Virus record (IMG/VR): IMGVR_UViG_3300041809_000571
Location: 115,841 to 179,840 of that record
From: a virus
Reading direction: 5' to 3' (one strand)
Length of the DNA stretch: 64,000 nt
The number at the start of each line of letters is the position of its first letter. The first letter of the stretch is position 1. The translations under genes were made by a program, and so were the position numbers. Positions 3,752-35,427 of the stretch are shown piece after piece. The notes below the pieces were generated by a model, which saw only the letters and a program-made list of their open reading frames with translations, made no database searches and was not told the origin of the DNA.

Positions 3752-3774
3752 AGTGGTATTACTATGATTAAGGG
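3752..3774 (+). promoter_or_regulatory. Promoter box GTGGTATTACT followed by AAGGGG
   Basis: Variant motif copy upstream of 3784. Confidence 0.35.
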
Positions 3775-3783
3775 GTGAATAGT

Positions 3784-4086
3784 ATGGGTTTGGTGGAACG
3801 CTTGATATCGCTGACGAAAGCGGATAAGGTCAAGTGGAATGCTCGGTCAGTTCCGGGAGATTTCACTGTCGCCTTCACTTGGGTGGACGGATTTGAAATC
3901 TCCATCACCAACTTTTACAACAAGAGGGACCTCTCCGGGAAAGAAGTGGAACGTACCATGTGTATCACCAGTCCCCTCGGAATCTCAGTGGACATCAACG
4001 CCTGTCTGAAAGACATTCAAGAACTCGTCAGCCTCATCTGTGAAAAAACCATAACTGATTTCATCGGAAAACTGGCTGCTCTATGA
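3784..4086 (+). CDS. Hypothetical protein
   Basis: ORF 3775..4086; start placed at ATG 3784, 9 nt after AAGGGG; preceded by a TGGTATTACT promoter-like box. Confidence 0.5.
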   Translation: MGLVERLISLTKADKVKWNARSVPGDFTVAFTWVDGFEISITNFYNKRDLSGKEVERTMCITSPLGISVDINACLKDIQELVSLICEKTITDFIGKLAAL

Positions 4087-4769
4087 TAGACCACCTAAGT
4101 CTCACCGAAGCTACCGAACGTGCCTGCGGAGAGCCTACCCTGATAGATGCCCTCTCTTGGATTTGTATTTGGGAAACTGAGCGTGTTGTCAAACAGGCAC
4201 TAAAGGGATGCCGCTTAGGAGATGACGGTCAAATCTACGTCAAGCCGGGCATGGCAACACCGAAGGGCGGCGGCTGGGACACTTGTTTTACCATCTGTCT
4301 GGCAGCAGTCATGGAGGAGTGGGACAAGCGTCATCCCAAGAAGCGGTGGGGGCCGAATGCAACACAGGAAACACCAGAGGAGCGGCTTACCCGGCTGGAA
4401 GGCAAGGTACACGAATTGGAGAAGGTCCACCCGGATTTGAACGCTCTGGCGTCCAAGGTGGATAAGAGCAGTGCCGAAATGGGCCGTCTACGGGTCCTCG
4501 TTGGCGAGAAGCTGCCGGGGTTGGAAGACATCAGGGACCAGTGCCGCCACGCACACGCCGTGGGCAAGGAAGAAGTAGCGGGAGTCAGGCGGCTTGCTGA
4601 TGCCTGCGCTACGAGGTTGGAATTAAATCATGTAAGGGACAAGGTAACTTCCGTACTTAAAGAATTGGGATGGACCATCGCATGGGACGAGGATGGACAA
4701 CCAATCTGGAACGGAAGTAGAGAGAGGCATAATGGACCGGTCGATTCAAAAATTATTGGGTATAGCTGA
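4083..4769 (+). CDS. Hypothetical protein with coiled-coil segment
   Basis: 228-aa ORF; ATGA overlap with the upstream gene. Confidence 0.5.
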   Translation: MIDHLSLTEATERACGEPTLIDALSWICIWETERVVKQALKGCRLGDDGQIYVKPGMATPKGGGWDTCFTICLAAVMEEWDKRHPKKRWGPNATQETPEERLTRLEGKVHELEKVHPDLNALASKVDKSSAEMGRLRVLVGEKLPGLEDIRDQCRHAHAVGKEEVAGVRRLADACATRLELNHVRDKVTSVLKELGWTIAWDEDGQPIWNGSRERHNGPVDSKIIGYS

Positions 4770-6246
4770 TGATGCTAAACGCATCTATCGTTTCATCGAA
4801 GGTGATGTGCAGAAGGAAGAGTATCAGTATTGCCAGATGTTGGACCAACTGGTATTCGGCGACAAGGGCTACGTGGATACCCTCGGACAAACGTGGGAGA
4901 TGATTCACGACCCCCGCTTCCAGAAGATTGAAAACCTGTTCCTCACCGAGCGCAAGGCAGTCTTTGGCGGCAACGCCAGCATTGGACGCCAGTACATGAC
5001 AGCGGATGGCATCTTCGTATCCATCACCACAGCGGACTTGGAAGAGTACACGGAAATCCTCGGGGAGGGCCGGTACTTCCACACCATCATTGCCCACCCG
5101 AATGAGACTTGCCCCGTGCGTATCTGGAATTTCCGGCTCTACCCGGATATGATTGCCGCCAACAAGTGGGAAGTCCCCAAGCCCGGACCCGGCTTGAAAT
5201 GCACATGCAGCGGAGAGCAGGAGGGGCTGGTCATCAACGCCGACTCCCAATTGGTAGCATGGGTTAAAAACCCTCGGCAGCTTAAAGATGCCTCTGACGA
5301 TTTCTTGTGGGCGTTCATTAGACGGGAGTGTCCCAACTATTTCTCACAGGGAGGCAGTCCCAATCCATTGGCAAGGCGGTTATTCGACTTGTTCCGGGCA
5401 GACCTCTTGGGGCTTATCGCCGACTACACACCCACGCCATTAGTGGACGCCTTCATCGAACTCGAAACCGGGGACATAACCACCGGGGCTACAGAGGATG
5501 AAAAACCCAAGGTTTTCCTCGAAGCCGACATCTTGGAGAAGGCACTAACTTACCGGGCAACCATGCGAGCCACGGCGGCAAAGATTTTGAAGCAGGTGGG
5601 AATCGTGGCGCAACTGCGGTCACTACCTGACCCCCGGCTCACCGATTTTGAACGGGACCACATGCTCCGCATGGTCTATCAGTCCGACTGGCCTGACGAA
5701 AAGGTTCCCATGGTCATGAATTTGATGACCTACTTAAGCAGTGTGACGAGAAGGCCCTATGAGGACCGGCTAAAGGAACAGCTTGCCCGTGCCTCCGAGG
5801 ATGCGCTCGAAGACTGCCGGGACCTGCAATCCGGCAAGCTCGAACCCATCAACCAAGAAACCGAACCGGCTGTGGAAACTGACCTTGACCCCCACGCCGC
5901 CGTGCTGGAGTCCATCCTCCGCAATCCTCTCAAGGCAGAACTGTTTCTTATTTGGGTGGGAGCGGAAGAGCGGGGAGAGAATGGCAGGACCGAGGAGGAG
6001 AAACTCAACATGCGCCGGTTGAACTCCATCCTCACCCCTATGTTCACGGACCCGGCGTTTGAGTTGGACGAAAATAAGTACTGGGAATACATGGACCAAG
6101 CCAACCGGCTCGGCTACTATGGTAAACCCACTGTGCAGGTTGTCAAGGAGGCGGTCCTCGGCGGCGGCAAACCCGGTGACCCTTGTCTCCTTAAGGAAGT
6201 CTACGAGCAGAAAAAGAAAGATGAACCCACCGAGGAGGCGAAATGA
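4693..6246 (+). CDS. Hypothetical protein (517 aa)
   Basis: Long ORF; the alternative start ATG 4732 has an AGAGAGG RBS; no recognisable catalytic motif. Confidence 0.6.
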   Translation: MDNQSGTEVERGIMDRSIQKLLGIADDAKRIYRFIEGDVQKEEYQYCQMLDQLVFGDKGYVDTLGQTWEMIHDPRFQKIENLFLTERKAVFGGNASIGRQYMTADGIFVSITTADLEEYTEILGEGRYFHTIIAHPNETCPVRIWNFRLYPDMIAANKWEVPKPGPGLKCTCSGEQEGLVINADSQLVAWVKNPRQLKDASDDFLWAFIRRECPNYFSQGGSPNPLARRLFDLFRADLLGLIADYTPTPLVDAFIELETGDITTGATEDEKPKVFLEADILEKALTYRATMRATAAKILKQVGIVAQLRSLPDPRLTDFERDHMLRMVYQSDWPDEKVPMVMNLMTYLSSVTRRPYEDRLKEQLARASEDALEDCRDLQSGKLEPINQETEPAVETDLDPHAAVLESILRNPLKAELFLIWVGAEERGENGRTEEEKLNMRRLNSILTPMFTDPAFELDENKYWEYMDQANRLGYYGKPTVQVVKEAVLGGGKPGDPCLLKEVYEQKKKDEPTEEAK

Positions 6247-6578
6247 GGGAAGTCGGAATACGAGTAGGGGCAATTTGCAGCGGTGATGAAAAGACCAAAA
6301 TCCTGAAATTCTTCGGGTACGGCGTGTACGAGGGAGACTTCATTCCCCCAGCCAATGCCGGGGGTTTTGCTCAAATGTGCCACGAGGCCGAAGTCACCAA
6401 CCCCCGCATCAAGCTGGACAACGGCAACACCGTGTGGGGCGGCGAATGTTGGTGGGGACCGGAAGACCAAATCAAGAAAAGGGTCGATGCCTGCATTGCC
6501 GCTGGCTGGAAAATTGAGGATGTCGGCATTAAGAAGCTACGGACCGCCGAGAAGAAAGCAAAGAAAGCGAGGAAGTAA
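6243..6578 (+). CDS. Hypothetical protein
   Basis: 111-aa ORF; ATGA overlap with the upstream gene. Confidence 0.5.
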   Translation: MREVGIRVGAICSGDEKTKILKFFGYGVYEGDFIPPANAGGFAQMCHEAEVTNPRIKLDNGNTVWGGECWWGPEDQIKKRVDACIAAGWKIEDVGIKKLRTAEKKAKKARK

Positions 6579-6943
6579 TGGCAATCGTTCAGTACGAGCA
6601 TCATGGAGTAAAGGTTTTTGTGGAGGACCGGCTCAAGGGAACGCACCGGGGCAACTGTCTGTGCTTCAAGTGTGCCTCCTTCAAGCCGGGGACACCGGAG
6701 AACTGCCCGTTGGCGCAGGAGCTTTATGAGTACTGTGTCAAACATGGCATGACCACGCCGGTCTATGAATGCCCGGTGTTCGTGGAAATCAAGCTGGAAG
6801 TAAAGAAGGTGGAAAAATTCCCGGATTGTCAGTATTGTCAAATGGGTGCAGAACACACCCACAGCAAGACCACCAAGTCACCAGCGGTTGCAACTCAGCC
6901 GCTCATCAATGTGACGGCCAGCGCTTACAAAGAGCAGAGCTAG
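6578..6943 (+). CDS. Cys-rich hypothetical protein (probable Zn-binding)
   Basis: CLCFKCASF, CPLAQELYEYC, CPVF, CQYCQ motifs. Confidence 0.5.
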   Translation: MAIVQYEHHGVKVFVEDRLKGTHRGNCLCFKCASFKPGTPENCPLAQELYEYCVKHGMTTPVYECPVFVEIKLEVKKVEKFPDCQYCQMGAEHTHSKTTKSPAVATQPLINVTASAYKEQS

Positions 6944-6952
6944 GAGACCACC

Positions 6953-7210
6953 ATGGCAATTGTAGCCGCTCCCGAGGGAGCAGTAGTTCATGACGACGGA
7001 AAGGTATATCGGCGTAAGCCGTGGCGGTCGGGGACGTTTGCCCTGATACTGATTGGCAACATGGTCAACGAGGCAGGGCCGGATGGAAAGCCCACCGGTC
7101 AGAAGAGCTTTGTGTCTTTGGTTCACAAGGAGTCCACCAACCCGTTGAAGGTTTCCCGGAAGACCAAGGTTGCCACGCCGGGTGAGGCCCTTGCCAAGGC
7201 AGTCAAATAA
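6953..7210 (+). CDS. Hypothetical protein
   Basis: 85-aa ORF. Confidence 0.45.
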   Translation: MAIVAAPEGAVVHDDGKVYRRKPWRSGTFALILIGNMVNEAGPDGKPTGQKSFVSLVHKESTNPLKVSRKTKVATPGEALAKAVK

Positions 7211-7442
7211 GCTTGCGGCGAAAGAGCCGACGTACAGGTTGGACGACTAGCCTGAGTGCGGTAATCAGCATCTCCGTGGGAATGCTACGGCCACGAAAAG
7301 TCGTCTAGGTAACGCACCGGAGCCTCCCTGTTGTGGGAGGGGGCGGTGAAGCGGGGAGCAGGAGTGCCGGGTAGTGACCGGAGTAGCGATAACCCTGCTG
7401 CCTGCGGGGGTCTGTGGCTCAACCCCGCCGCATGGAGGAAAT

Positions 7443-7712
7443 ATGCTAACCAAACCAGAATGCCGTGTATTGTCTATGCTGCTGGACATGGCTGCTGATA
7501 AATTCTCCAATCATTGCTGCAATGACCTCCCGGATGAAATCACCGATGCTTTGAGCGACGAGGAGAAACTCACCCTGATAAAGGAGTACGCCGCTTGGAG
7601 CGCCGACCCGGATGAGTTCGATGGTGAACCCACCGCCAAGCGCTTCGACCATCTTGCAGACTGGATTCTCATGCGTTTCTTCTCCGAGAAGTTAAACAAG
7701 ATGGCTCAATAG
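7443..7712 (+). CDS. Hypothetical acidic protein
   Basis: Start moved to ATG 7443, after GGAGG at 7434; the upstream 230 nt are non-coding and structured. Confidence 0.45.
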   Translation: MLTKPECRVLSMLLDMAADKFSNHCCNDLPDEITDALSDEEKLTLIKEYAAWSADPDEFDGEPTAKRFDHLADWILMRFFSEKLNKMAQ

Positions 7713-7715
7713 CTT

Positions 7716-8063
7716 ATGATGCGAGGATATCACACGGTATACAAAGCTTTCCGGGTCAGGAGTGGGAAACTGTGTTTCCTGTTTCGAGGACACAAGGGGA
7801 GCCTTGAGGTTCCCATTGGGGAATGGCTTACCGCAAAGATGCGCCTCGTGCGTGATGGTAAGGGACGGCGCTACCGGGCCGGGTTCCACTTCATGTGGGA
7901 TAAAGAAGCTGTAGCGAAGTTCAACAAACGCACCAAAAACAAATACATCATCCTGAAAGTGGACGTGCGAGAGCGTCTCCGCCCCAAACCCAACAGTCCT
8001 AATGATGTCTGGCTGGCACAGCAAATGCGTGTACTCTTCTGCCACATCATCGGCTGCAAATAG
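7716..8063 (+). CDS. Hypothetical basic protein
   Basis: 115-aa ORF. Confidence 0.45.
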   Translation: MMRGYHTVYKAFRVRSGKLCFLFRGHKGSLEVPIGEWLTAKMRLVRDGKGRRYRAGFHFMWDKEAVAKFNKRTKNKYIILKVDVRERLRPKPNSPNDVWLAQQMRVLFCHIIGCK

Positions 8064-8128
8064 CACTAAAGTAGACTACGACATAGCACCGTCGTACCCC
8101 CCTCAATGGGCAAAAAACCCCAGCAAAC

Positions 8129-8140
8129 TGTGTATTATTA
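8129..8140 (+). promoter_or_regulatory. TGTGTATTATTA -10-like box about 30 nt upstream of the sugar transferase start
   Basis: Same core as the GTATTATT family, but followed by a leader with a GGAGG SD. Confidence 0.35.
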
Positions 8141-8169
8141 CCTATCAGAAAATCTGTACGGGAGGAACA

Positions 8170-8787
8170 ATGAGTGCTTGGAACGAGCGAGTTAAGCGGG
8201 CTTTTGACCTATGCGGCAGTTTGGCCGGTTTGATTATAACCGCTCCAATCCTTGCTGTGGTTGCGGTGCTTATCAAGCTGACCTCACGGGGACCTGTCCT
8301 CTACCGACAGGTGCGAGTGGGAAAGATGGGTCATCTGTTCACCCTCTTCAAATTCAGAACGATGAATACCGACAATAATCCGGCAGTCCACAAGAAATAC
8401 GTTCAGAGCCTTATTTGCGGGAAGGCTCCTGCCGCAGACGGTGTTTATAAGATAGTTAATGACCCCCGCATCACCCGGATAGGGAGTTTCCTGAGAAAGA
8501 CCAGTCTGGACGAGCTTCCCCAACTGTTCAATGTCCTTATGGGGGATATGTCACTCGTAGGCCCCCGGCCCCCGATTCCCTACGAAGTGGAAGTATACCA
8601 GCCGTGGCACCACACCCGGCTGTTTGTCAAACCCGGCATAACCGGTCTGTGGCAGGTGAGTGGGCGGAACCGGACGAGCTTTAGTGAGATGGTGATGCTG
8701 GATATCCACTACACGGCATCCTTCTCAATTTGGAATGACCTTAAGATACTGGTTAAGACCCCGTTAGTCATGGTGACGGGGAGATAA
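8170..8787 (+). CDS. Polyprenyl-phosphate sugar phosphotransferase (bacterial sugar transferase family, PglC/WbaP C-terminal type)
   Basis: Hallmark motif [21 protein letters not shown]; single N-terminal hydrophobic helix ([20 protein letters not shown]); start at ATG 8170 after GGAGG; TGTGTATTATTA box at 8129. Confidence 0.8.
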
Positions 8788-8824
8788 GTTCAGCGGCAGA
8801 ATAGCGAGCCGCTTTGGAGGGAAA

Positions 8825-9418
8825 ATGAAAAACGTGAAGTTGTTGCTTTCCTTGCTGACGATGTTCCTGTTCCTGTGCATTCCCCTGCGAGCGGACACCA
8901 TTGGAACGGTGTACTTCAACGGGGATTATGCGTTCGCCAACAACGGCTATGGGATTCCCCCATACGGTGGAACTCTGGACGGCATTGCGGAAGACTTCTA
9001 CTGTGTGGACTTCGCCCACGACATCAGCGCCGGGGAAAGCTGGAAGGCATACATCGCTCCGGTCAGCGGTACTACCTTGGAAGAGGAGGCTTGGTTGGCA
9101 ACCCAAATGCTAGGGACCACCAGCCAAACTCAGCAAGCAGAGTACCAATGGGCAATCTGGAGCTTATCGGGGGGAACCGACCCTTACGGTCAGTCCAATG
9201 CCAATGCTCTTATCGCCGAGGCTCAGTCCGCTATTAACGGTGGATACACGGGGGCCGGATGGGAAGTCCTCACCCCGGTGAACTGGGGAACCCAACCGGG
9301 ACAGCAATTTGTTGTCCAAACTCCCGAGGGACCTGCTGTTGAGCTTCTTTTATTTGGTCTACTGGGTGTCGGCTGGCTGGTTTGGAAGAAAAAGCTGAAT
9401 ATTCCTGTCCGGTCATAA
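8825..9418 (+). CDS. Secreted protein with PEP-CTERM-like C-terminal sorting signal
   Basis: N-terminal signal peptide (MKNVKLLLSLLTMFLFLCIPLRA); C-terminus TPEGPAVELLLFGLLGVGWLVWKKKLN has a PEP-like motif, then a hydrophobic helix, then a basic cluster. Confidence 0.6.
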   Translation: MKNVKLLLSLLTMFLFLCIPLRADTIGTVYFNGDYAFANNGYGIPPYGGTLDGIAEDFYCVDFAHDISAGESWKAYIAPVSGTTLEEEAWLATQMLGTTSQTQQAEYQWAIWSLSGGTDPYGQSNANALIAEAQSAINGGYTGAGWEVLTPVNWGTQPGQQFVVQTPEGPAVELLLFGLLGVGWLVWKKKLNIPVRS

Positions 9419-9443
9419 TCCGGCCATTAAAAAACGTCGATTT

Positions 9444-9476
9444 CCTCCCATTCCGTGGTATACTGAGAGTGGGAGG
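9444..9476 (+). promoter_or_regulatory. Extended -10 promoter box (GTGGTATACT) embedded in an anti-SD/SD hairpin (CCTCCCA ... TGGGAGG)
   Basis: One of five copies of the TGGTATACT/N7/GGAGG arrangement; inverted repeat flanks the box. Confidence 0.5.
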
Positions 9477-9487
9477 AAACATCGACT

Positions 9488-11998
9488 ATGAAATTCGGAA
9501 CCGTATCAGGCAATACCGAGACCAGCGGTGCTATCGGACAGCAACAGCAGTTTTCCATTCAAAGCTCGGCAATCGCTTTCGAGACACTCTCGTCTCGCTT
9601 GTACTCCGACCCAATCCAAGCGGTTATCCGGGAACTGTCCTGCAACGCCTATGACGCCCATGTGATGACGGGCAAGGCGGATGAGCCGTTCGTTGTGACG
9701 CTGCCGACGAACTTTGACGCTTCCTTCAAGATTCGGGATTTCGGACCGGGCATGTCGAACGACGAAATCCTCAGCCTCTACTGCACCTACTTCTCCAGCA
9801 ACAAAAACTCCCGCAATGACGCCATCGGCGCTTTCGGCTTGGGCAGCAAGTCGCCCTTCGCCTACTTCCTGCGCAACGGCAAGACGGGCGGATTCGCCGT
9901 CATCAGCTACCAGAGCGGTGTGGTTCGCACGTATGCGGCCTTCATTGACAACGGGTTACCCAAGATTGAATTGCAGTCGGAAGCCGAGACTACCGAGCCT
10001 GATGGTCTGGAAGTCATCTTCCCGGTCGAACAGCGGGACGTGTGGGAATTCACCAACAAAGCCAAGCTGGTGTTCGAGTTCTTCACTCCCCTGCCGACCT
10101 GCAACGTGCAATTGAACTGCCAGAAACCGGAATACTCCATTGAAGGAGAGGGGTGGGGACTGCGCAAGAATTCCTCCACCAATCAGGGCAACGGCGTTCG
10201 TGCCATCATGGGCATGGTGCCCTACTCGGTCGGCAACATCGACATCAGCCGTTTGAGCGAGAATCAAAAGAGCATCATTGCGATGCCCTTCGACATCTTC
10301 TTTGCGATTGGCGAAGTCAACCCTGCGGTTAGCCGGGAGACCCTCCAACTCGATACCCCCACGATTACCGCCATCCAAGCGAAGTTGGATGCCATCCACA
10401 CCGAACTGCTTGAAACGGTGAAGAAGAAGGTGGACAAAGCGGCTAATGAGTGGGAAGCCAAGATGGTCATTTTCAACCTGCTCCAGCACCAAGCCATCGG
10501 TCGCATCATCAACGCTGCCGCTCAGAAAGGTGCCTTCGCCGGGACCTATACCAACTTCACCCTGAGTGCTGGCAAAGACATGAAGGTTAACCAGTTAGAC
10601 TACTCCAGCATCCAAGTGACGCATTACGACAGGTCCCACAGCGGGCGTGGTAGGGCCGACCGGGAAACGCTGTTCACCTTGACCCCGGAAGAACTGGACT
10701 CCACCCTCTTGAAAACAAAGGGTGACGCAGCCAAGCGCAGTGCGTATGAGGTCGAAATCGAAGCGAACCCCAATGTGGTTTTCATCTTGGATGACATGAA
10801 ACCCACTCGTGCCAATCGCTACATCAACTACTTCATTAAAAACAAGGCGTATGACAACCCCGAAAAGCGGGACGCCTATCTTATCAGCCCCCGCCCGGAA
10901 GTCGCCGGGAGTGGAAAGGTCGCCTCGGAAGTCGCCGCTCTGCTCGCCGCCCTCGGAAATCCTCCGATGACGCTTGCCAGCAGCTACGAGACGAAGTACA
11001 AAGACAAGATGCCCAAGAAGAACTATGTGAAGAGGGGCAAGGGGTTGCTGGTGTTCGTGGAGCGCTCTTGGTACCGTGGTCGCCATGGTTCTTGGCGGCA
11101 GGCATGGGCGACGGCGGATGAAACCGTCCCCGAGATGCCGGGAACGAAGTACTACGTGGTGTTGGCGAAGGGCAACTCACGGGCAATGACCGCCGTCATC
11201 CCCGGCGTGGACAGCCCGACCGACCTTTACAACCTTATCAACAAGATGCGTGCTGCCAAGGTGTTCGGGTTCGGAGACACCGAAAAGATTTACGGCGTCC
11301 GGGAGAATTCCAAGCTGCTCAAGAACTCCAATTGGGTTCCCCTCCGGTCGGTCATTGACAAGACCATCACCAAGGTCATGAACCCCACCAAGGAACTGGC
11401 AATGAGCCTGCGCTTGAGGCCGTTCAGCAATGATTGGGAGTTCGTAATGAAGCAGGTCGCCAAGACCCTGCCTCTGTCCACTACCAGTGCTTTCCAGAAC
11501 TTCTCGGTCCAGTTGGAAGCCGCTCGCACCGCCTCCAAAGACCGGGACGAAAACCTTGTCTACGTCCTGAACGCTGTCATGTACAAGGTGACTAACGTCA
11601 CTGATTTCAGCGAAATGTGGGAGAAGGTCGAAAAACAGTATCCCCTGTTGTCCCTGATGCGGAAGGATAGCTACAGCGGCAGCAAGGAAGAAGCCGACGC
11701 CTTGATTGTCTACCTGCGGATGATTGACGAAATGATTGAAAAGGCGAACGCTCCGGTCGCTCCCCCGGCCCCGGTCGTGGACAAGTCGGAAGCTTACCGG
11801 CTCCGTAAAGCTCGCAACCCAAAGGCTTACATGGAGCGCAAGCGGCAACAGGCGGCAACCATGACGCAAGTAGCGAACGAGGATGACGCCTTAGTAGCAG
11901 GGGAGTTAACAATCGTTGATGGAACCCTCGTCCCGACCGATGCCGCCTGTGCCTGCGCCGAATTTGAAAAAGAATTGTCGGTTGCAGCGGCGGTGTAA
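9488..11998 (+). CDS. GHKL-family (Hsp90/histidine-kinase-like) ATPase domain protein, rIIA-like
   Basis: N box RELSCNAYDA, G1 box IRDFGPGMS and G2 box GAFGLGSKSPFAY; 836 aa, followed by a 400-aa partner, as in rIIA-rIIB pairs of large phages; TGGTATACT promoter box upstream. Confidence 0.6.
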   Translation: MKFGTVSGNTETSGAIGQQQQFSIQSSAIAFETLSSRLYSDPIQAVIRELSCNAYDAHVMTGKADEPFVVTLPTNFDASFKIRDFGPGMSNDEILSLYCTYFSSNKNSRNDAIGAFGLGSKSPFAYFLRNGKTGGFAVISYQSGVVRTYAAFIDNGLPKIELQSEAETTEPDGLEVIFPVEQRDVWEFTNKAKLVFEFFTPLPTCNVQLNCQKPEYSIEGEGWGLRKNSSTNQGNGVRAIMGMVPYSVGNIDISRLSENQKSIIAMPFDIFFAIGEVNPAVSRETLQLDTPTITAIQAKLDAIHTELLETVKKKVDKAANEWEAKMVIFNLLQHQAIGRIINAAAQKGAFAGTYTNFTLSAGKDMKVNQLDYSSIQVTHYDRSHSGRGRADRETLFTLTPEELDSTLLKTKGDAAKRSAYEVEIEANPNVVFILDDMKPTRANRYINYFIKNKAYDNPEKRDAYLISPRPEVAGSGKVASEVAALLAALGNPPMTLASSYETKYKDKMPKKNYVKRGKGLLVFVERSWYRGRHGSWRQAWATADETVPEMPGTKYYVVLAKGNSRAMTAVIPGVDSPTDLYNLINKMRAAKVFGFGDTEKIYGVRENSKLLKNSNWVPLRSVIDKTITKVMNPTKELAMSLRLRPFSNDWEFVMKQVAKTLPLSTTSAFQNFSVQLEAARTASKDRDENLVYVLNAVMYKVTNVTDFSEMWEKVEKQYPLLSLMRKDSYSGSKEEADALIVYLRMIDEMIEKANAPVAPPAPVVDKSEAYRLRKARNPKAYMERKRQQAATMTQVANEDDALVAGELTIVDGTLVPTDAACACAEFEKELSVAAAV

Positions 11999-12014
11999 GA
12001 ATTTTCCGAAATTT

Positions 12015-12047
12015 TCTCTCAATTCGAGGTATACTATAAGTGAGGAG
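12015..12047 (+). promoter_or_regulatory. Promoter box GAGGTATACT followed by GAGGAG
   Basis: Motif copy upstream of the rIIB-like gene. Confidence 0.4.
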
Positions 12048-12057
12048 ACACAACCTT

Positions 12058-13272
12058 ATGGCAAAAGCTACACCCATTCCGTATCAGTTGCAGGACAATT
12101 ATGTGAGCGTTCTCGTCAACGGACGCCCCTTTCAACTCTTGGCATCCCATCCCACCTTCCGCAAGATGGTCAACGCCCTCAAGATGAAGCGGTGGGCGAA
12201 GGTGCCTGACCTTGTTAATTTGGCGCAGTCCATTTCCAACCGGTCGCACGGCAACGTGGAAGTGAAGAACGGGGAAGTGTACTACAAGGGTTCCCCGGTC
12301 CACTCTTCCCTGACCGCTCTCATGCTCCGCCTGATTGAGGCCGAGCAGCCGATCAACCACATGTTGAAGTTCAGGGACCACCTGTTCTCCAACCCCCGCC
12401 CGGAGGCAGTGGAGGGTCTGTACGAATTCCTGACCCTCTACCAAATGCCGGTGACGGACGACGGCTGTTTCGTCGCCTACAAGCGGGTGGACCACAACTA
12501 CAAGGACATCCACACTCACACCGTGGACAACCATGTGGGCGCTTGCCCGGTCATACGTCGTCGGGACGTGGACAAGGACCGCAGCAACCCTTGCTCCCGT
12601 GGATTCCATTTCTGCTCTCGTGCGTACCTGTCCGGCTTCCCCGGCGAACACCTGATGGCTATCAAGGTCAACCCTGCCGACGTGGATGAAATTCCCGAGG
12701 TCCAGTGCGGCAAGGGTCGGACGTGGCGGTATGAAGTCATCGCCGAAATTCCGAACGGCGACTACTCCGACAAGGACGCCGCCTACTTCCAGAACCCGCT
12801 GATTTCCATCGGTCGTGACCGCAAGCTGTTGCTCGGCAAGTTGCTCGCCCTGCCGCTCGTAAAGCGGTTGGTCGGTCGGACCGAGCGCCAGTTGGCGGAA
12901 TACAAGAAGGCCCGGCGCAAGCTCGGTGACATCCACCCCAAGGTGGAACACGCTGGCTTGACCACCAACGCCCTCAAGAAGGCGTCGTTCGGTCGGCTCC
13001 AACAGTGGTATGAGCGGTTCACCGCCATTGCCCCCGAACTGCCCGGCGTTTCGGCAGTGTTTGTCAACCCCACCTACCCGGCTCGTGTCGCCGCCAAGTT
13101 GACGGTCACACAGGTCGCCAAGCAGATGGGCATGAAAGCATCCTTGGTCTACAAGCTGGAACGGGCGGAAACCCCGAGCCAGCGGTTCATTGATGACTAC
13201 ATTGGGGCTGTCATGGCTCTCAAAGACCAGCCCAATGGCGTTTCCTTCGCCGCCGCTACCGTAGCGGCATAG
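12058..13272 (+). CDS. Hypothetical protein, possibly rIIB-like (by synteny only)
   Basis: ORF 12040..13272 with start at ATG 12058, 10 nt after GAGGAG; GAGGTATACT box upstream; GC-rich hairpin downstream. Confidence 0.5.
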   Translation: MAKATPIPYQLQDNYVSVLVNGRPFQLLASHPTFRKMVNALKMKRWAKVPDLVNLAQSISNRSHGNVEVKNGEVYYKGSPVHSSLTALMLRLIEAEQPINHMLKFRDHLFSNPRPEAVEGLYEFLTLYQMPVTDDGCFVAYKRVDHNYKDIHTHTVDNHVGACPVIRRRDVDKDRSNPCSRGFHFCSRAYLSGFPGEHLMAIKVNPADVDEIPEVQCGKGRTWRYEVIAEIPNGDYSDKDAAYFQNPLISIGRDRKLLLGKLLALPLVKRLVGRTERQLAEYKKARRKLGDIHPKVEHAGLTTNALKKASFGRLQQWYERFTAIAPELPGVSAVFVNPTYPARVAAKLTVTQVAKQMGMKASLVYKLERAETPSQRFIDDYIGAVMALKDQPNGVSFAAATVAA

Positions 13273-13279
13273 TCGAAGC

Positions 13280-13305
13280 GGGAGCGGGTCGCCATGCCCG
13301 CTCCC
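13280..13305 (+). terminator. GC-rich hairpin (GGGAGCGGG tcgccatg CCCGCTCCC), possible terminator
   Basis: 9-bp perfect stem directly after the rIIB-like stop; no clear U-tract. Confidence 0.3.
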
Positions 13306-13332
13306 CTCCTCCTTCTGAGGGATGGGAGAGGT

Positions 13333-13786: not shown

Positions 13787-13792
13787 GGAAAC

Positions 13793-25800: not shown

Positions 25801-27466
25801 TGAAAACTTTACGGCGGGAGACACGGCTGACCTTCGGGTACAGTGTCTTGATGCAGCAGGACAGAGCATCACTCCCGTCTACATGAACTTCAACGTGTAC
25901 GCCGTGGGAGGAGTGGGACCAAGCGGATATACAGGTTACACTGGATATAGCGGATTTACGGGACCGACTGGTCCCGGCAACTTTACAGGTTACACAGGTT
26001 ATACGGGAGCGACGGGTTTCACTGGGCCTACAGGACCCGGAAACTTCACTGGGTTTACAGGCTACACGGGGTTCTCAGGTTACACGGGAAACACTGGTCC
26101 TACCGGCCCCGGAAATTTCACAGGCTTCACGGGTTATTCGGGTTACAGCGGTCCAACCGGATATACTGGTCCAACCGGGCCGGGGAATTTCACTGGTTAC
26201 ACGGGGTACACAGGTTACTCTGGTTATACCGGTAACACTGGATATACCGGACCCGGTAATTTCACAGGTTACACAGGTTACTCAGGATACACGGGTCCCA
26301 CGGGATTTACGGGTTTCACGGGTCCCGGCAATTTTACCGGCTACACCGGTTACACCGGTTACATAGGAACTACTGGTTACACCGGATATACCGGCCCCGG
26401 AAACTTTACGGGTTACACAGGTTATACCGGATATACAGGAACTACTGGCTATACGGGCTACACTGGACCCGGAGCGTTCACCGGCTACACTGGATATACA
26501 GGCTATACCGGATATACGGGGTATGGCAGTACGGGGATGACCGGCTACACCGGATACACCGGATATACTGGAACTGGAGGAACCGGCTACACCGGTTACA
26601 CGGGACCAAGCGGTGGCCCTATCGGCCCCACGGGATACACGGGGCCAATGGGCGGAGACCAAGTCGATGTCAATGGCAGCCAAGTCATCACCGCCGCAGC
26701 ATTCACCGGCTACAGCGGTCCAACTGGGTACACGGGGTATGGTGCCACAGGTTATACGGGGCCGGGAAATTTCACGGGGTATACGGGTTACACAGGACTA
26801 GCTGGGGTGGGGTCGTTCACCCTCACCGAGAATGGGGTCACGGTCAGCACCTCCGCCGCCAATTTCAGCAACACCACCCCTGCCGCACCGGCAGGTGGGA
26901 CCAATGTCAAGTGGCAGAACGATAGCTCCACCCCGCCTAATGTGTCTGCCTATATGCCTAGTAGCCTTTACCTGCTTGAGCAGCATACTGCCTCAAGCTC
27001 AGCCTCCTTAGCATTCACGAACTGGTATTCCTCTTCCTTTGATGAGTATGTTGTTGAGTTTAAAGAGTTTATACCATCTACTGGGAGCCCTTATCTTGTC
27101 ATCCAACTTGGTGGAGATTCAACATCTGGTCATTATTTCTGGAGTTGGGTTTATAACGGTACTTCTGGGGCTGGTGCTCCCGGCACGCAGGACCAGACAG
27201 CCTTAAGCTATAGCTCAGGGATTGTCATCAACAACAACGGTAGCACTACACTACCGATAAGCGGCACGCTAAAGCTTTTCAATCCAGCCGGTACAACATA
27301 CCCTAAAGTAGTAATGCTGACCTCAGCATCTTTAGTCAGCAGACTAGTAACAAACAGTGGGGGAGGGTACTGGAACTCCACATCCGCCTACACTGCATTC
27401 TCTATATTGTTCTCCAGTGGCAATATCGCTACGGGAACGGCCCGTTGCTATGGAGTAGGACACTAA
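22868..27466 (+). CDS. Giant collagen-like tail fibre protein (1532 aa)
   Basis: Two long Gly-X-Y blocks dominated by GYT/GPT triplets and the recurring GPGNFTG unit, separated by a globular beta-domain; the C-terminal domain begins with the [10 protein letters not shown] module. Confidence 0.85.
23903..25478 (+). repeat. Tandem nucleotide repeats encoding collagen-like block 1 ([24 protein letters not shown] units of about 26 aa / 78 nt)
   Basis: Repeated ggttacaccggcccgaccgggccgggtaatttcac(a/g)gg(a/t)tacacggg units visible in the sequence. Confidence 0.8.
25919..26800 (+). repeat. Tandem nucleotide repeats encoding collagen-like block 2
   Basis: Same unit family as block 1. Confidence 0.8.
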
Positions 27467-29043: not shown

Positions 29044-29059
29044 CCCAGTATTATTCCAT
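29044..29059 (+). promoter_or_regulatory. CCCAGTATTATTC-N3-ATG element
   Basis: Identical 13-mer to the 2850 copy. Confidence 0.45.
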
Positions 29060-29824
29060 ATGAGACCACAGCTTTCAGAAATCCTCATCAAGGTACTGAA
29101 TCCCCAAGGCACCTCCGAGGCCGGACAAATCATCCACCTTGCCCTCCTTCGTTATTGTGACTCCAAACGCAAGTGGCAAAACACTGAATACCTATGGCTG
29201 GGGATACAGGAGCACAAACGTCTGACCGGGATATACCCCGTCCGTGATGCCATGGCGGCATGGCTCTATCATGCCGCTGAAACCAACGATGAGGAGATGG
29301 GAGCAGTGGCCTTCCTCCGGGACAGCCAAAGACTGGGCTTTACTTTCGATGAGGCTGAGAATTACGTCATTCCCCTCATCATGCAATCCCGCCCCTCTCG
29401 AACAAGCGCTTCGGTGGTAGGGGATATGCGCATCGCCATATTGGGACAGAACCGGGTGAAGTACCTTGCTTACTCTCGAAAACTCCAGCAATCATGGAAA
29501 TTTCTCGGTCCCCACCAATGGGAACAGGGGAGAATAGCCGCCCTCAAAGAGTTGCTATCCCGGCCCCGGCTATATTTCCGGGAAGAGTTCGAGTCCAAAA
29601 TGGCCGGAATCGCCAAGGAGAACATGCAAGCGGAGCTTTCATTACTCGGCTACATTCCTCCTCCTGCTAAAGAACCGGAACCGGTGGAAGTACCCGCTCC
29701 CCTCGTAGTGCCCATAAGAATAATGAGCATGGAGGAGATAGTTAAAAAGCAAGAGGAAGCTAAGGCGGCTATGGGTATGACCGGTCCTACCGGTCCAGCC
29801 GGGCCTCCTCCAGCGGCGGAATAA
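29060..29824 (+). CDS. Hypothetical protein (possible fibre assembly/accessory protein)
   Basis: Preceded by CCCAGTATTATTC plus 3 nt; C-terminus has a short GMTGPTGPAGPP collagen-like bit. Confidence 0.55.
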   Translation: MRPQLSEILIKVLNPQGTSEAGQIIHLALLRYCDSKRKWQNTEYLWLGIQEHKRLTGIYPVRDAMAAWLYHAAETNDEEMGAVAFLRDSQRLGFTFDEAENYVIPLIMQSRPSRTSASVVGDMRIAILGQNRVKYLAYSRKLQQSWKFLGPHQWEQGRIAALKELLSRPRLYFREEFESKMAGIAKENMQAELSLLGYIPPPAKEPEPVEVPAPLVVPIRIMSMEEIVKKQEEAKAAMGMTGPTGPAGPPPAAE

Positions 29825-29896
29825 TTTCCATGAAACTCAGTATCTATACTTGTCGGGATAGGACGAAAGCACCCGGCATCTCTGCCGCAAGTCAAA

Positions 29897-29940
29897 CGGG
29901 GTGCGTTTCAGTACGGACGCACCCCGTGCGCATTTTGCGC
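29897..29940 (+). terminator. Probable intrinsic terminator after the fibre module
   Basis: 10-bp GC-rich stem CGGGGTGCGT / ACGCACCCCG with 10-nt loop, followed by GCGCATTTTGCGC. Confidence 0.5.
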
Positions 29941-30019
29941 ATCAAATAGGAAACGAGCTACGGAACTCATCATGTAATGAGGAACCGGAAATTACCCTGA
30001 TGCTTAGACGAGAGAAGCA

Positions 30020-31039
30020 GTGCCAAGAATGCCTAAAAAGCAGTGCAAACGGCTTGACCCTAACATCAAGAGCGAGGCTGAGGAAGAACTTGCCAGCAGC
30101 CTAAAGCATCTTATCGTCGGACAGACACGGGCAATTGAGGTACTCGTAGACGCATACGAAACCTTCCGTGCTGGTTTAGCCCCGCCTGACCATCCTGTCG
30201 GAAATCTAATATTCCTCGGTCCCACCGGTTGCGGGAAGACCTACGTCATTGAAGTAATGGCGGAGCTTCTCTTCGGTACAAAAAAAGCCCTCAAAAAGGT
30301 GGACTGCGCCGAGTTCCAACATTCTCACGACATTGCCAAACTGGTGGGTTCCCCACCCGGATACTTGGGACATCGGGATACACCAGCCTACTTACGTCAG
30401 GAAAGTCTGGATGCCCACCATACCAAGGAATTGGCATTGACACTTTTACTCTTTGATGAGTTTGAGAAGTCTAACGATGCCCTGTGGAACTTGTTACTTG
30501 GAATACTTGACAAAGGTACACTTACCTTGGGTGACAACAAGCAAAGCACCTTCGATAAATGCCTCATCATCATGACGGGAAATCTCGGTTCCCGAGAAAT
30601 GCAATATCTCGCCCGAGGTGGACTGGGATTCGCCGGGTCTTCCACAAAGAGCAGTGAGGCATTCAACAAAGAGGTGGAAACGGCAGGACTAGAAGCCGCC
30701 AAAAAACGCTTCACCCCGGAGTTCCTCAACCGCATAGATGAGATAGTGGTGTTTCACTCCTTGGATGAGAAGCAACTCAAACAGGTGGTGGAATTGGAAA
30801 TCGAACAGGTGCAGAGCCGGGTGTTAAAGATGCGAGACCCCCGGCAGTTCGTCTTGGAATTCACCCCCGCCGCCAAAGACTTGCTGATAGCCCAAGGAAC
30901 GGACTTAAAGAACGGGGCACGTCCTCTCAAACGGATAATGGAGAAGCTGGTAGTAAAGCGGCTTTCCCGTTTTCTTAACACCAAACAAGTCAACATGGGG
31001 GGACCTCATCGTAGTGGACAAAGACAACGAAGACCTTAG
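30020..31039 (+). CDS. ClpA/ClpB D2-type AAA+ ATPase (stand-alone)
   Basis: LIVGQTRAIEVLVDAYETFRAGLAPPDHPVGNLIFLGPTGCGKTYV matches the ClpB D2 sensor and Walker A region; Walker B LLLFDEFEKS; C-terminal VVFHSLDEKQLKQVVELEI; GTG 30020 or ATG 30029 start. Confidence 0.7.
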   Translation: MPRMPKKQCKRLDPNIKSEAEEELASSLKHLIVGQTRAIEVLVDAYETFRAGLAPPDHPVGNLIFLGPTGCGKTYVIEVMAELLFGTKKALKKVDCAEFQHSHDIAKLVGSPPGYLGHRDTPAYLRQESLDAHHTKELALTLLLFDEFEKSNDALWNLLLGILDKGTLTLGDNKQSTFDKCLIIMTGNLGSREMQYLARGGLGFAGSSTKSSEAFNKEVETAGLEAAKKRFTPEFLNRIDEIVVFHSLDEKQLKQVVELEIEQVQSRVLKMRDPRQFVLEFTPAAKDLLIAQGTDLKNGARPLKRIMEKLVVKRLSRFLNTKQVNMGGPHRSGQRQRRP

Positions 31040-31119
31040 TTTCACCCGTGTTGCCGAGGGCGTACTGGTCGCCGAAGCCCCTGCCAGCTAAATATTCACC
31101 CCCTTTATAGAGGTGTGCT

Positions 31120-33670: not shown

Positions 33671-33850
33671 GTCATCCCCCTACTTAGAAACGTAAAAGCG
33701 GCCAAATGAGACTGCTGCGGAAAGTCTCTTCCACCCTCGAAATCACCGAGAAATTTTCCTATTAAAATCAATGGTTTGAAAATTTATTCACGAAAGTCGC
33801 AATATTTTGGGTATTTGTGGATACATGGGCTACAGCCCATTGGAGGCAAT

Positions 33851-34216
33851 ATGAGCGGAGAATTGATTGAGGACGGAGTCCCCGTCCCTCAGAAGGAATC
33901 GAAGTACGCTGTGTTGGGAAAGCTGAGAGTCGGGCAGAGCGCCGTCATCGCCGTACCCCGGTCTTCCAGTCTGAGCAAGACCATTGCCGTTCTGCAAACG
34001 AAAACAGGGAAGCGTTTCAAGCGTCTCAAGGTGGAGGGCGGCGTCCGGGTGTGGCGCATCGACCCCGAGGAAGCGAAGCCGAGGAAAGGCAAGAAGTCAG
34101 CCACTCCTATTCCGGTTGCGCCCCCGTCCATCGACCCGGTAGCATCAACCCCAATGCCAGCGCCTCCCACCGAGGATGGCGAGGCATCCCTGCACGCCGT
34201 GGATGCTGAGGCATAA
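33851..34216 (+). CDS. Hypothetical basic protein
   Basis: Start at ATG 33851 after GGAGG. Confidence 0.45.
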   Translation: MSGELIEDGVPVPQKESKYAVLGKLRVGQSAVIAVPRSSSLSKTIAVLQTKTGKRFKRLKVEGGVRVWRIDPEEAKPRKGKKSATPIPVAPPSIDPVASTPMPAPPTEDGEASLHAVDAEA

Positions 34217-34230
34217 AATAACCCATATTT

Positions 34231-34263
34231 CCCTCCACTTTGTGGTATACTGAGAGTGGAGGG
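34231..34263 (+). promoter_or_regulatory. Extended -10 promoter box (GTGGTATACT) in an anti-SD/SD hairpin (CCCTCCA ... TGGAGGG)
   Basis: Same architecture as 9444-9476, with compensatory base changes in the stem. Confidence 0.5.
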
Positions 34264-34266
34264 AAC

Positions 34267-34731
34267 ATGGCAAAGAGCGATTTCGTCACTCGCAAGACCA
34301 TCTGTCCCAACGAGCATTGCGGTAACACCAGATACGAGCGGACTTACGCTCGCAACGATAGTGGCACATTAGTGCCGGTGTGGAAGTGTATCAACTGCTT
34401 ACGGGAATACCCTCGAACGGGGCGCAACCGGCGCACCAACCATATGCGAGCAGTGGACATGTGGCGGAAGCTTCGTGACGAATGGAAGCCGGTAGACGAG
34501 AAGCTCATGGCTCTGGCGGAAGCCAAGGTCATCAAGAACGGAGCGATTCTGGTTTACGGCTCCGCCTACAACTACCACATGGACCGGTTGCTCATGGAAG
34601 AGCGCATGTCGAACTTCAACGTCCGCTACTGCGGTGAGCAGGCTCGCCGCCAACTGGCGGAAGCGGTGAAGTTCATCGCTGAGGAGGAATCCAAGTGTCA
34701 ATCACCCATGTCGTTATCACCAACGCCGTAG
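34267..34731 (+). CDS. Zn-finger protein
   Basis: CPNEHCG ... CINC; TGGTATACT box plus GGAGGG upstream. Confidence 0.5.
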   Translation: MAKSDFVTRKTICPNEHCGNTRYERTYARNDSGTLVPVWKCINCLREYPRTGRNRRTNHMRAVDMWRKLRDEWKPVDEKLMALAEAKVIKNGAILVYGSAYNYHMDRLLMEERMSNFNVRYCGEQARRQLAEAVKFIAEEESKCQSPMSLSPTP

Positions 34732-34867
34732 TCTTTCTGCTCTTGGGAGTCTGGTGGAGCAAACAGGGTTGGTTTAACCTGTTGCTCAAGCTCAGCTTCT
34801 TTGGGCTGTGGGTTGCCAACGGGCTGGTTGCTTTGAACCTGCTCGGATACATCGTGAAGAGGTAAAC

Positions 34868-35383
34868 ATGGAAAGCGTAATGACTGTCGTTAAGGCTCAC
34901 CGCCTCGCCAAAGAATGGCATGGCGAGCAAATGTATGGGGACAAACCCTATATCCACCACTGTGAGATGGTGGTCCGGGTCCTCGAAATGTTTGAATGGG
35001 GGGACGACATGGAGTTGCTCTCCGCCGCCCTCCTGCATGATACCATGGAGGATGCCCGCATCACTCACGCCAAACTGATGGACGAATTCTCCGAATCCAT
35101 CGCCGACCTCGTACAACTCGTCACCGACAAACAGGGACGTAATCGCCGGGAGCGCCACGAGCGCACCTACCCCCTTATCCGAGGCAACAAGAGGGCGACC
35201 GCCCTCAAGCTCGCCGACCGGATTGCCAACGTCATCCAGTGCCGTCTGTACAGCAACGAGGGGTTGCTGGCGATGTACCAAAAAGAGCACAATGACTTCA
35301 AGGCGATGCTTATCGACCCGGCAATTAGTTGTGCCAAGCTCGATATGATGTGGAATTACCTCAACAACTTGCTGGCGGAATAA
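34868..35383 (+). CDS. HD-domain phosphohydrolase with SpoT/Mesh1-type (p)ppGpp hydrolase signature
   Basis: AHRLAKEWHGEQMYGDKPYIHHCEMV ... LSAALLHDTMEDA resembles the RelA/SpoT HD signature AHxGQxRxxGxPYIxH ... AALLHDxxED. Confidence 0.6.
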   Translation: MESVMTVVKAHRLAKEWHGEQMYGDKPYIHHCEMVVRVLEMFEWGDDMELLSAALLHDTMEDARITHAKLMDEFSESIADLVQLVTDKQGRNRRERHERTYPLIRGNKRATALKLADRIANVIQCRLYSNEGLLAMYQKEHNDFKAMLIDPAISCAKLDMMWNYLNNLLAE

Positions 35384-35398
35384 TCCTGCTGATTTTGT

Positions 35399-35427
35399 CC
35401 TCGGCGTGGTATACTGTAATTGAGGGG
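35399..35427 (+). promoter_or_regulatory. Extended -10 promoter box (GTGGTATACT) followed by GAGGGG; CCTC upstream
   Basis: Motif copy upstream of the CCA-adding enzyme gene. Confidence 0.45.

Follow-up and report, generated by a model that had tools for sequence, protein, structure and literature searches.

The present study concerns a stretch of 64,000 nucleotides of viral DNA (IMG/VR record IMGVR_UViG_3300041809_000571, positions 115,841 to 179,840), referred to hereafter as the window and numbered from its first letter, and a short recurrent sequence, the box, that precedes several of its genes, including those for homologues of rIIA (9488–11998; phrog_612, 5e-113) and rIIB (12058–13272). 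The box is seen at about a dozen members in the window and across the whole phage clade, and its role as the −10 element of a promoter is well supported by its conservation and its placement. At two genes—rIIA and a gene for 154 amino acids starting at 34267—the box lies in the loop of a stable hairpin, the 5′ arm of which, a complement of the Shine–Dalgarno sequence (anti-SD), pairs with the Shine–Dalgarno sequence (SD) itself; that such a hairpin acts as a translational gate closing read-through transcripts is a good inference, restricted to these two genes. The reading as a whole, i.e. a −10 promoter family of a giant-phage clade carrying rIIA and rIIB, combined with gating of read-through at two genes and with promoter cassettes serving as recombination joints, is held here with moderate confidence.

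The window represents a part of an uncultivated giant phage from a clade that carries both rIIA and rIIB. Its relatives, designated below by locus numbers beginning with L, have been gathered via homologues of rIIA and of the CCA-adding enzyme/poly(A) polymerase encoded at 35433–36797 (the CCA enzyme); the rIIA and rIIB orthologues compared span protein identities from 84% to ~35%, in DNA of 45–64% GC. A preliminary description, made from the letters of the window alone, had listed five gene starts (3784, 9488, 12058, 34267 and 35433) preceded by the box, and all five boxes are indeed in place, each with a purine-rich SD 6–7 nucleotides (nt) further on and then the ATG. They are given here together with two candidates and one looser relative:

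3752..3762, plus strand: variant box GTGGTATTACT before ATG 3784, a weaker member, no hairpin; a similar GTGGTATTCCT occupies the orthologous gap of L014.
8132..8138, plus strand: candidate GTATTAT after TGT, before a sugar-transferase gene (ATG 8170, the gene start being the source's own call); 24-nt leader to the SD.
9456..9464, plus strand: box TGGTATACT, putative rIIA promoter; −10 hexamer TATACT at 9459–9464, SD at 9471–9476, ATG 9488, predicted start ~9470–9471.
12027..12035, plus strand: box AGGTATACT before rIIB (ATG 12058), kept before rIIB orthologues, no hairpin; predicted start 12042.
33811..33850, plus strand: looser relative, box-like GGTATTTGT, followed by a leader hairpin (33825–33840), SD and ATG 33851, in a divergent gap that must hold a promoter.
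34243..34251, plus strand: box TGGTATACT before the 154-amino-acid gene (ATG 34267); predicted start ~34257–34258; the same cassette occurs in L097, L102 and L105.
35407..35415, plus strand: box TGGTATACT before the CCA enzyme gene (ATG 35433), kept in the L097 orthologue, hairpin not significant; predicted start 35422.
38161..38167, plus strand: candidate GTATTAT before either ATG 38172 (4 nt, leaderless-like) or ATG 38187 (with GGGGG as SD); kept in L097 and L098.

Chance is excluded as the origin of the boxes. Exact copies of the 9-mer TGGTATACT number five in the window against 0.23 expected from shuffles, and with one mismatch allowed the count is 16 against 7.7; moreover, when all 6- and 7-mers of the 2.7 kb of intergenic DNA were counted without bias against the whole window, GTATACT and GTATTAT were the most enriched 7-mers. 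It should be mentioned separately that two exact copies of TGGTATACT, at 8592–8600 (minus strand) and 44019–44027 (plus strand), lie inside genes, antisense to the resident gene and with neither SD nor ATG behind them; given the 0.23 copies expected per window, their number is slightly above chance, and they could be antisense promoters or nothing. Concerning the looser relative, the true start of its gene is ATG 33851, not TTG 33776. The same layout is found in L097 and L098, and the leader hairpin (ATGGGC-taca-GCCCAT) returns in L099 (~3920–3945) with the compensated pair ACGGGC/GCCCGT.

Among the relatives, the box stands 6–7 nt before the SD at nearly every rIIA and rIIB orthologue examined, from ~35% to 84% protein identity, the one exception seen being L027 (31% identity), which lacks the box. 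Its spellings comprise, among others, TGGTATACT, TGTATAGT, TGTATATT, TGTATACT, CGGTATACT, CCGTATACT, TGGTATATT and TGTATAAT. The invariant part consists of the G and of T, A, T, A and T of the hexamer, with flanks that vary freely, and the hexamers at the orthologous rIIA and rIIB sites read TATACT, TATAGT, TATAAT, TATATT or TATTAT, all of them of the TAnnnT type. In −10 elements of the sigma-70 family the second and the last hexamer positions matter most; since only the fifth base of the hexamer is variable here, the pattern is that of this family. The position of the box agrees with such a role: in 249 kb of clade DNA, 30 of the 71 copies of GTATAnT (42%) are followed at 3–10 nt by an SD with the start of an open reading frame (40 codons or more), compared with four of the 203 copies (2%) of 14 permuted control heptamers.

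The preliminary description had proposed an extended −10 promoter, i.e. one with TG a single base upstream of the hexamer. The promoter part of this proposal is borne out by the conservation in the clade, by the enrichment close to gene starts and by the leaderless copies presented below, all of which point to a promoter-type element. The extension itself holds for four of the five sites (TGG at 3752, 9456, 34243 and 35407; AGG at 12027) and not clade-wide, many relatives having CGG, CCG or a TG that abuts the hexamer, so that the clade-wide invariant is the G at −13.

An alignment of 28 non-redundant sites contains no −35 element of the TTGACA type, and a scan of 2500–14000 for consensus promoters did not list the box sites. 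What the alignment does contain is a further element of fixed position: A-A-A-A-T, which occupies −30 to −26 relative to the box G, is followed by Cs and reads AAAAATCCCTCAAAAT in six further distinct IMG/VR members. With the box G set at −13, this A-rich element lands near −43 to −39, where the proximal subsite of the UP element is situated in promoters of E. coli. Its representative before rIIA is the following:

9429..9434, plus strand: A-run of the upstream A/T-rich element of the putative rIIA promoter, −29 to −24 from the box G; equivalents at 34215–34221, 35379–35384 and 11997–12002.

More distant rIIA loci from an IMG/VR scan (at most 43% identity), which served only as a positional control, carry TTGACA-17-TATAAT at the same place, and a promoter in front of rIIA is therefore the ancestral expectation.

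A direct repeat, GGCCA-n5-6-CGGCCA, is also present ~30–50 nt upstream of the rIIA box (9410–9428) and is kept in relatives of 50–84% identity. Its first copy in the window overlaps the final codons of the gene ahead of rIIA, and the repeat may be a binding site or owe its conservation to the encoded protein.

The strongest new evidence is provided by copies of the box, absent from the preliminary list, that appear to be leaderless. The pattern GTATWWT-N5-ATG occurs three times in the window, against 0.22 expected, and all three copies are at real gene starts lacking an SD:

2854..2868, plus strand: GTATTAT, 5 nt, ATG 2866; no SD.
2818..2832, minus strand: GTATTAT, 5 nt, ATG of the radical-SAM gene 2820–1840, in the same 45-nt divergent gap, opposite strand.
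29048..29062, plus strand: GTATTAT, 5 nt, ATG 29060; the L097 orthologue (2461) keeps box, 5 nt and ATG, with different flanks.

The first two of them face away from each other within the 45 nt that separate two divergent genes, a gap that must hold two promoters and holds little else. A box placed 5 nt from an ATG without any SD has the geometry of a leaderless mRNA, and the transcription start is therefore expected ~6 nt past the box (~6–7 nt in the promoter model given below). Applied to the sites with an SD, this spacing predicts RNAs that begin at the first G of the SD, i.e. at ~9470–9471, 12042, 34257–34258 and 35422. The earlier suggestion that the promoter's own transcripts start just upstream of the SD thus gains support, with the start predicted at the SD itself, from the leaderless copies, in view of their fixed 5-nt distance from the ATG.

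As far as the hairpins are concerned, the perfect inverted repeats noted previously at two of the boxes, CCTCCCA (9444–9450)/TGGGAGG (9470–9476) and CCCTCCA (34231–34237)/TGGAGGG (34257–34263), are present as described, and both helices are longer than had been reported:

9436..9486, plus strand: hairpin around the rIIA box, 9436–9455 paired with 9463–9486 in 21 pairs; anti-SD TTTCCTCCCA at 9441–9450, and TGGGAGGAAA at 9470–9479 as the SD.
34223..34270, plus strand: hairpin around the 34243 box, 13 pairs between 34229–34241 and 34253–34265 (anti-SD with SD), plus CCAU/AUGG (34223–34226/34267–34270) that pairs the AUG.

In both, the anti-SD 5′ arm occupies the variable spacer of the promoter, the loop contains the −10 element and the SD forms the 3′ arm, joined by the AUG at 34267. 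The rIIA hairpin has a folding energy of −28.3 kcal/mol (z −6.3) and that at 34267 one of −25.4 kcal/mol (z −4.4), and in neither case was an equally stable fold obtained in 200 shuffles. Among the 77 gene starts of the window, the rIIA helix ranks first and the 34267 helix joint second in upstream stability, while both genes belong to the lowest four in accessibility of the SD, 34267 being the lowest. None of the 34 sites with the layout TGGTATACT-N-GGAGG-start from unrelated phages reaches z −3; this background was drawn from IMG/VR by the pattern TGGTATACT-N5-8-GGAGG, the matches of which come mostly from unrelated phages.

The compensatory swaps between the two stems, also reported before, are real: in the same register from the box, two adjacent pairs are U-A and C-G at rIIA versus C-G and U-A at 34267. 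Base pairs were counted by hand, the automatic alignment of the six hairpin cassettes having misplaced a one-base insertion in the loop. Over 25 sites, an upstream arm pairs better with the downstream arm of its own site than with that of another (p = 0.0005; 0.012 with both window sites left out). In L014 the SD arm of the rIIA helix is the same and the opposite arm has changed from C to U twice and from A to G once, all three changes being kept as G-U wobbles in a helix of 12 pairs. Helices with different arms recur at rIIA in L014, L015, L019, L020 and L016; in the close relatives L012, L097 and L102, the arms are identical and the changes fall in the loop and flanks, and the L102 orthologue of the 34243 cassette retains its helix (z −3.0). 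These observations argue that the two helices of the window are not accidents. The folding check suggested in the preliminary description predicts a helix on the read-through leader and an open promoter-initiated leader at both genes, the RNA from the predicted start being nearly unstructured (−0.5 kcal/mol for rIIA, from 9470, and 0 kcal/mol for 34267). The sequestration of the SD in read-through transcripts is accordingly retained for 9488 and 34267 only and given up for the other three listed sites.

An anti-SD/SD helix exists elsewhere in the window, too. The hairpin ACCTCC-ttcatata-GGAGGT at 60703–60726 (minus strand), directly before ATG 60699 of the gene 60028–60699 (minus strand) in the operon of giant polyvalent proteins, has an 8-nt loop without a box; hiding of the SD therefore also occurs without an internal promoter.

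There are several points that weigh against the reading given above, most of them concerning how far the hairpin extends beyond these two genes. At 3752, 12027 and 35407 the fold is no more stable than that of shuffled sequences (z +0.7, +0.3 and +1.1, respectively); the weaker CCTC/GAGG pairing described earlier at 35399–35425 has its letters in place and forms no structure. In the test of 25 clade sites, in which only the 35 nt upstream of the box were shuffled, the z scores of the fold were as follows:

Window 9458: −5.5.
Window 34245: −3.4.
L019 (rIIA): −2.8.
L014 9099: −2.65.
L014 (rIIA), L015 1441 and L016 (rIIA): about −1.7 each.
Other 18 sites: −1.2 to +1.8.

Most family members in the relatives are thus without a helix. 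As a class, the box sites pair with their upstream region no better than 206 non-box gene starts do, a comparison blunted by crude gene calls and by a difference in GC, and a class-wide hairpin has been rejected on the basis of this equal pairing. The consensus fold of nine rIIA upstream regions is weak (−1.1 kcal/mol), the rIIA helices of the relatives sit in different registers and the rIIA of L013 has no helix at all. Six distinct IMG/VR members with GGTATACTGAGAGTGG have a helix only in the copy of the 34243 cassette (z −3.0), the others ranging from z −1.7 to +1.3. The hairpin is, therefore, a gene-specific addition at rIIA and the 34267 gene and not a property of the family, being absent at three of the five listed sites and at most members in the relatives. 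Furthermore, both window hairpins derive from one cassette as paralogous copies and together represent little more than one evolutionary origin. Regarding the promoter itself, many members have G directly before TATAnT instead of TGn, so that the term extended −10 is not strictly applicable to the clade, and the gene upstream of rIIA may be under the same kind of box (8132). Finally, promoter activity, the position of the start and timing, as well as the polymerase or sigma factor that reads the box and the effect on translation, have all been inferred from sequence.

The third component of the reading, the mobility of the cassettes, is based on two cases. L102 and L105 match the window at ~95% identity from the end of the upstream gene through the full cassette to the first 12 coding nucleotides (ATGGCAAAGAGC), after which they have an unrelated gene (6 of 23 residues aligned). 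L098 has a hybrid cassette immediately in front of the CCA enzyme gene: its 5′ half, of the 34243 type, meets a different SD half at the box; the genes between the two cassettes of L097 and of the window are missing, and the orphaned anti-SD arm carries a change from T to C. Both cases indicate that the cassettes mark recombination junctions. The composite motif that is repeated consists of A/T-rich DNA with the upstream stop codon, the promoter, the SD and the start codon, as seen in the 28 aligned sites and in the six IMG/VR members.

Put together, the proposed mechanism would operate as follows. The promoter would be composed of an A/T-rich upstream element (AAnAATCC type), a variable spacer of 12–13 nt and G-TATA-n-T or G-TATTAT. 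At the SD-type sites (9456, 12027, 34243 and 35407) the first G of the SD would be the first base of the RNA, and at the leaderless sites (2854, 2832 on the minus strand and 29048) the A of the ATG. At rIIA and the 34267 gene the spacer would, in addition, carry the anti-SD tract, and read-through RNA would fold this tract onto the SD (and onto the AUG at 34267) with −25 to −28 kcal/mol and stay untranslated, the RNA from the gene's own promoter lacking the 5′ arm and having its SD open. The cassettes would double as recombination junctions between gene modules. Neither the reading of the sequence nor a scan found a terminator-like site between the upstream gene and the helix at rIIA or at 34267. 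Since the gene upstream of rIIA may itself depend on a box of this kind (8132), a simple early/late switch as in T4 is not evident, and the purpose of the hairpin could be to uncouple expression levels rather than timing. Two further ideas have been rejected. Translational coupling as the main effect would require melting of the helix core by ribosomes, for which the stop codons, 18 nt (rIIA) and 7–13 nt (34267) before the helix, are judged too far away. Presentation of the −10 element in a cruciform is disfavoured by the loops of 11–19 nt, with which extrusion is unlikely.

The hairpins may also be interpreted as terminators or attenuators, i.e. insulators, combined with a restart promoter, the hiding of the SD being incidental. 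The stem-loops of promoter early stem-loop (PeSL) cassettes, which lie between the −35 and −10 elements or over the latter, act in this way (PMC2839356), and the window cassettes share with them both the layout (upstream stop in A/T-rich DNA, promoter, stem-loop, SD, ATG) and the behaviour in recombination. Neither helix is, however, followed by a U-run or listed by a terminator scan; the 3′ arm is exactly the SD (with the AUG at 34267) and the loop has 11–19 nt, unlike in an intrinsic terminator, whereas PeSL stems are made of GGGG/CCCC with no involvement of the SD. This explanation is thus considered unlikely. A further alternative is that the helices are processing or stability elements, such as RNase III sites, at which the polycistronic RNA would be cut between genes, the 3′ end of the upstream RNA stabilised and, perhaps, the SD set free by the cleavage: the strictly intergenic position and the ~20 pairs with small internal loops at 9436–9486 would suit this, a helix of that kind being in the size range of RNase III substrates, yet the sequence conservation typical of a shared processing site is missing, a helix is present at two sites only and its arms coincide with the SD instead of flanking it, making such a role quite improbable. 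That the hairpins have no function, one cassette with a chance anti-SD tract having been duplicated and its complementarity inherited, would agree with the fact that the two hairpin cassettes are the most similar pair of the family and with the null result of the class-level test. It is nevertheless a rather unlikely explanation, since the duplication has been followed by two compensated pairs, L012, L097 and L102 have kept the helix at the same genes, the rIIA helix is formed by different arms in L014, L015, L019 and L016, and the orphaned 5′ arm of the hybrid L098 cassette carries a change.

Two other explanations concern what the box and the palindromes are. The preliminary description had offered the palindromes alternatively as DNA operators for a dimeric phage regulator overlapping the promoter. 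The inverted repeats do bracket the −10 element, the rIIB homologue has a C-terminal helix-turn-helix domain (HTH_31, residues 343–378)—a feature that T4 rIIB is not known to have—and perfect palindromes, TCGGAATTCCGA in L013 and TGACCGGTCA in L106, occur just upstream of the box in relatives. On the other hand, the half-sites CCTCCCA/TGGGAGG and CCCTCCA/TGGAGGG differ in a way that compensates base pairs and does not preserve sequence, and the rIIA helix of L014 is kept through G-U wobbles, which matter to RNA and not to a DNA half-site; an operator is therefore disfavoured. Other members have no repeat, an arm spacing of 19–27 nt with the whole −10 element in between would be unusual, and the right half-site is simply the SD, all of which leaves the operator very improbable. 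As an observation on their own, the palindromes of L013 (~9955–9968) and L106 (~8750–8760) lie wholly upstream of the rIIA/rIIB promoter box, without involving the SD, and may be binding sites of a regulator. The box, in turn, could be thought of as a signal acting in RNA just 5′ of the SD, for example as an A/U-rich enhancer or as the target of a translational regulator, with the hairpins modulating access to it. The fixed distance of 6–7 nt between box and SD and the A/U-rich nature of the box in a GC-rich genome are in its favour, and rIIA and rIIB of T4 are targets of the translational repressor RegA. Against this are the leaderless copies, which lack an SD and stand 5 nt from the ATG, including those on both strands of the divergent gap; the A-rich element at a fixed distance upstream; a variable base as in −10 hexamers of the sigma-70 type; and the canonical promoter at the same spot in distant relatives. 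An RNA-level signal is decidedly improbable, and the box is best regarded as a −10 promoter element, with a hairpin at rIIA and the 34267 gene that would gate translation.

With regard to its source, the window is recognised as phage DNA because of its gene content, which includes a collagen-like tail fibre of 1532 amino acids (22868–27466) and a minus-strand succession of genes for giant polyvalent proteins that extends from 39410 past 63753; an HD-domain gene (34808–35383) precedes that of the CCA enzyme. The exact rIIA protein is also encoded on a contig of 364,142 bp, and therefore the window is assigned to an uncultivated giant phage, as well as on several shorter contigs of JGI/ENA metagenomes, the samples of which we take to be peat or bog. 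A megablast search with 5 kb against phage records gave no match, so no close record was found in the phage collection, and in a tblastn search of this collection with rIIA the best identity was 36%, with no annotated relative that could be used. Among named cellular homologues of the CCA enzyme, the nearest (46% identity) belongs to a genome bin of Acidobacteriia, which may be a weak hint at the host; the literature on this host and on giant phages of peat was searched without a usable result. Pfam and PHROGs left most neighbouring genes without a name, and the timing class can therefore not be read from gene content. Rfam gave zero matches at the gathering score across the window, and the tRNA scan yielded nothing relevant.

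Several other features of the window may be worth mentioning. Immediately 3′ of the rIIB stop codon there is a hairpin, GGGAGCGGG-tcgccatg-CCCGCTCCC (13273–13300), followed by a CT-rich tract without a U-run, which may mark the end of the rIIA–rIIB unit. The seven tightly packed minus-strand genes of 39410–63753 include those for proteins of 3027, 1566, 1436 and 1007 amino acids, and the domains found in these giant proteins are ART-PolyVal, GP88, GNAT, nucleotidyltransferase and cREC; neither a box nor another promoter candidate was seen between the seven genes, and their promoter is therefore expected past the end of the window. Between two of the polyvalent-protein genes lies a homing-endonuclease-like gene of the GIY-YIG/NUMOD3 type (44107–44973, minus strand), in the stretch of the window with the lowest GC content (0.478). 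The long GC-rich intergenic stretch 7211–7440 has several hairpins, e.g. GCCTCCC-tgttgt-GGGAGGGGGC at ~7320–7345, and a portion, gccgggtagtgaccggagtagcgat, is conserved in L013 in front of a gene; the stretch has no Rfam match and may be a non-coding RNA or a leader. Ahead of the AAA/Lon-like gene 30020–31039 there is a gap of 195 nt (29825–30019), whose motif cacccggcatctctgccgcaag and hairpin 29896–29929 recur in L100 (64% GC), the remaining leader recurring in L097, so that it looks like a conserved non-coding element.

Both main ideas have clear precedents, i.e. the hairpin-embedded promoters and the PeSL cassettes of T4-type phages and the extended −10 and leaderless promoters. The genes e, soc, 49, I-TevI, I-TevII, I-TevIII and segB of T4 and mobE of Aeh1 have a promoter inside a hairpin that hides the ribosome-binding site, the late promoter being located in the region of the 5′ strand of the helix and the read-through RNA being poorly translated (PMC3014915, PMC2988022). 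As in e and I-TevI, a stable helix holds the SD and/or the AUG at 9436–9486 and 34223–34270, though not at 3752, 12027 and 35407; the promoter is placed so that its own transcripts, if begun at the predicted start, would lose the 5′ strand of the helix; and related phages retain the arrangement at the same gene. Unlike here, the internal promoter of T4 is a late one (TATAAATA, read with gp55) and follows an early/late logic for harmful or late proteins, whereas the window has a sigma-70-like box, the genes concerned are rIIA and one for a small protein, and the arrangement is predicted from sequence.

In T4-type phages, the PeSLs act as mobile regulatory cassettes, and their crossovers fall between the −10 element and the ATG (PMC2839356, PMC4122927). 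The likeness lies in a repeated cassette of 50–60 nt with an upstream stop in A/T-rich DNA, promoter, SD and start codon, in a stem-loop over or near the −10 element, here only at some sites, and in recombination between cassettes that deletes or swaps the genes behind them. The PeSLs differ in having full consensus −35 and −10 elements and terminator stems of a G-run and a C-run; no TTGACA is present here, most cassettes are without a significant stem-loop, and the arms that do exist are the anti-SD and the SD, with no U-run. Extended −10 (TGn) sigma-70 promoters with an UP-like element resemble the box through TG-n-TATACT at three window sites, the absence of a −35 hexamer, the invariant second A and last T of the hexamer and the A-tract near −43 to −39, the difference being that conservation across the clade rests on the G adjoining TATAnT, TG one base further upstream often being absent. 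The phage sigma factor gp36 of phiEco32 uses a single-element promoter, tAATGTAtA, with a start 6–8 bp downstream (PMC8948821). The box is similar in being one short, phage-group-specific element containing GTATA, with no −35 element and a start a few bases on, although the match in sequence is only partial, and no phage sigma factor was found in the window, where no search aimed at one was made. With leaderless mRNAs, which start at the A of the AUG 6–7 nt past the −10 element, three window genes share the arrangement of box, 5 nt and ATG without an SD, a prediction from geometry only. Leaderless mRNAs are known mainly from actinobacteria, Deinococcus-Thermus and archaea, and from a few phage genes.

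A bolder version, in which the whole clade would use a single-element promoter, possibly read by a phage sigma-like factor, with starts exactly at the SD or AUG, the spacer recruited as an anti-SD arm and the cassettes serving as recombination joints, is regarded as speculative and unlikely to hold in full; if true, translation of chosen genes would depend strictly on the gene's own promoter. The analysis provides a concrete and testable promoter model—box, A/T-rich element and predicted start—for very large soil and peat phages without a cultured member, which helps to define operons, and possibly timing classes, in their genomes. The predicted transcripts, beginning exactly at the SD or at the AUG, also bear on how the host of the phage initiates translation. 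Two regulatory designs of T4, the promoter enclosed in a hairpin that hides the ribosome-binding site and the promoter cassettes used as recombination joints, would appear to recur in a distant lineage with another promoter sequence, and this would argue for a convergent or very old use.

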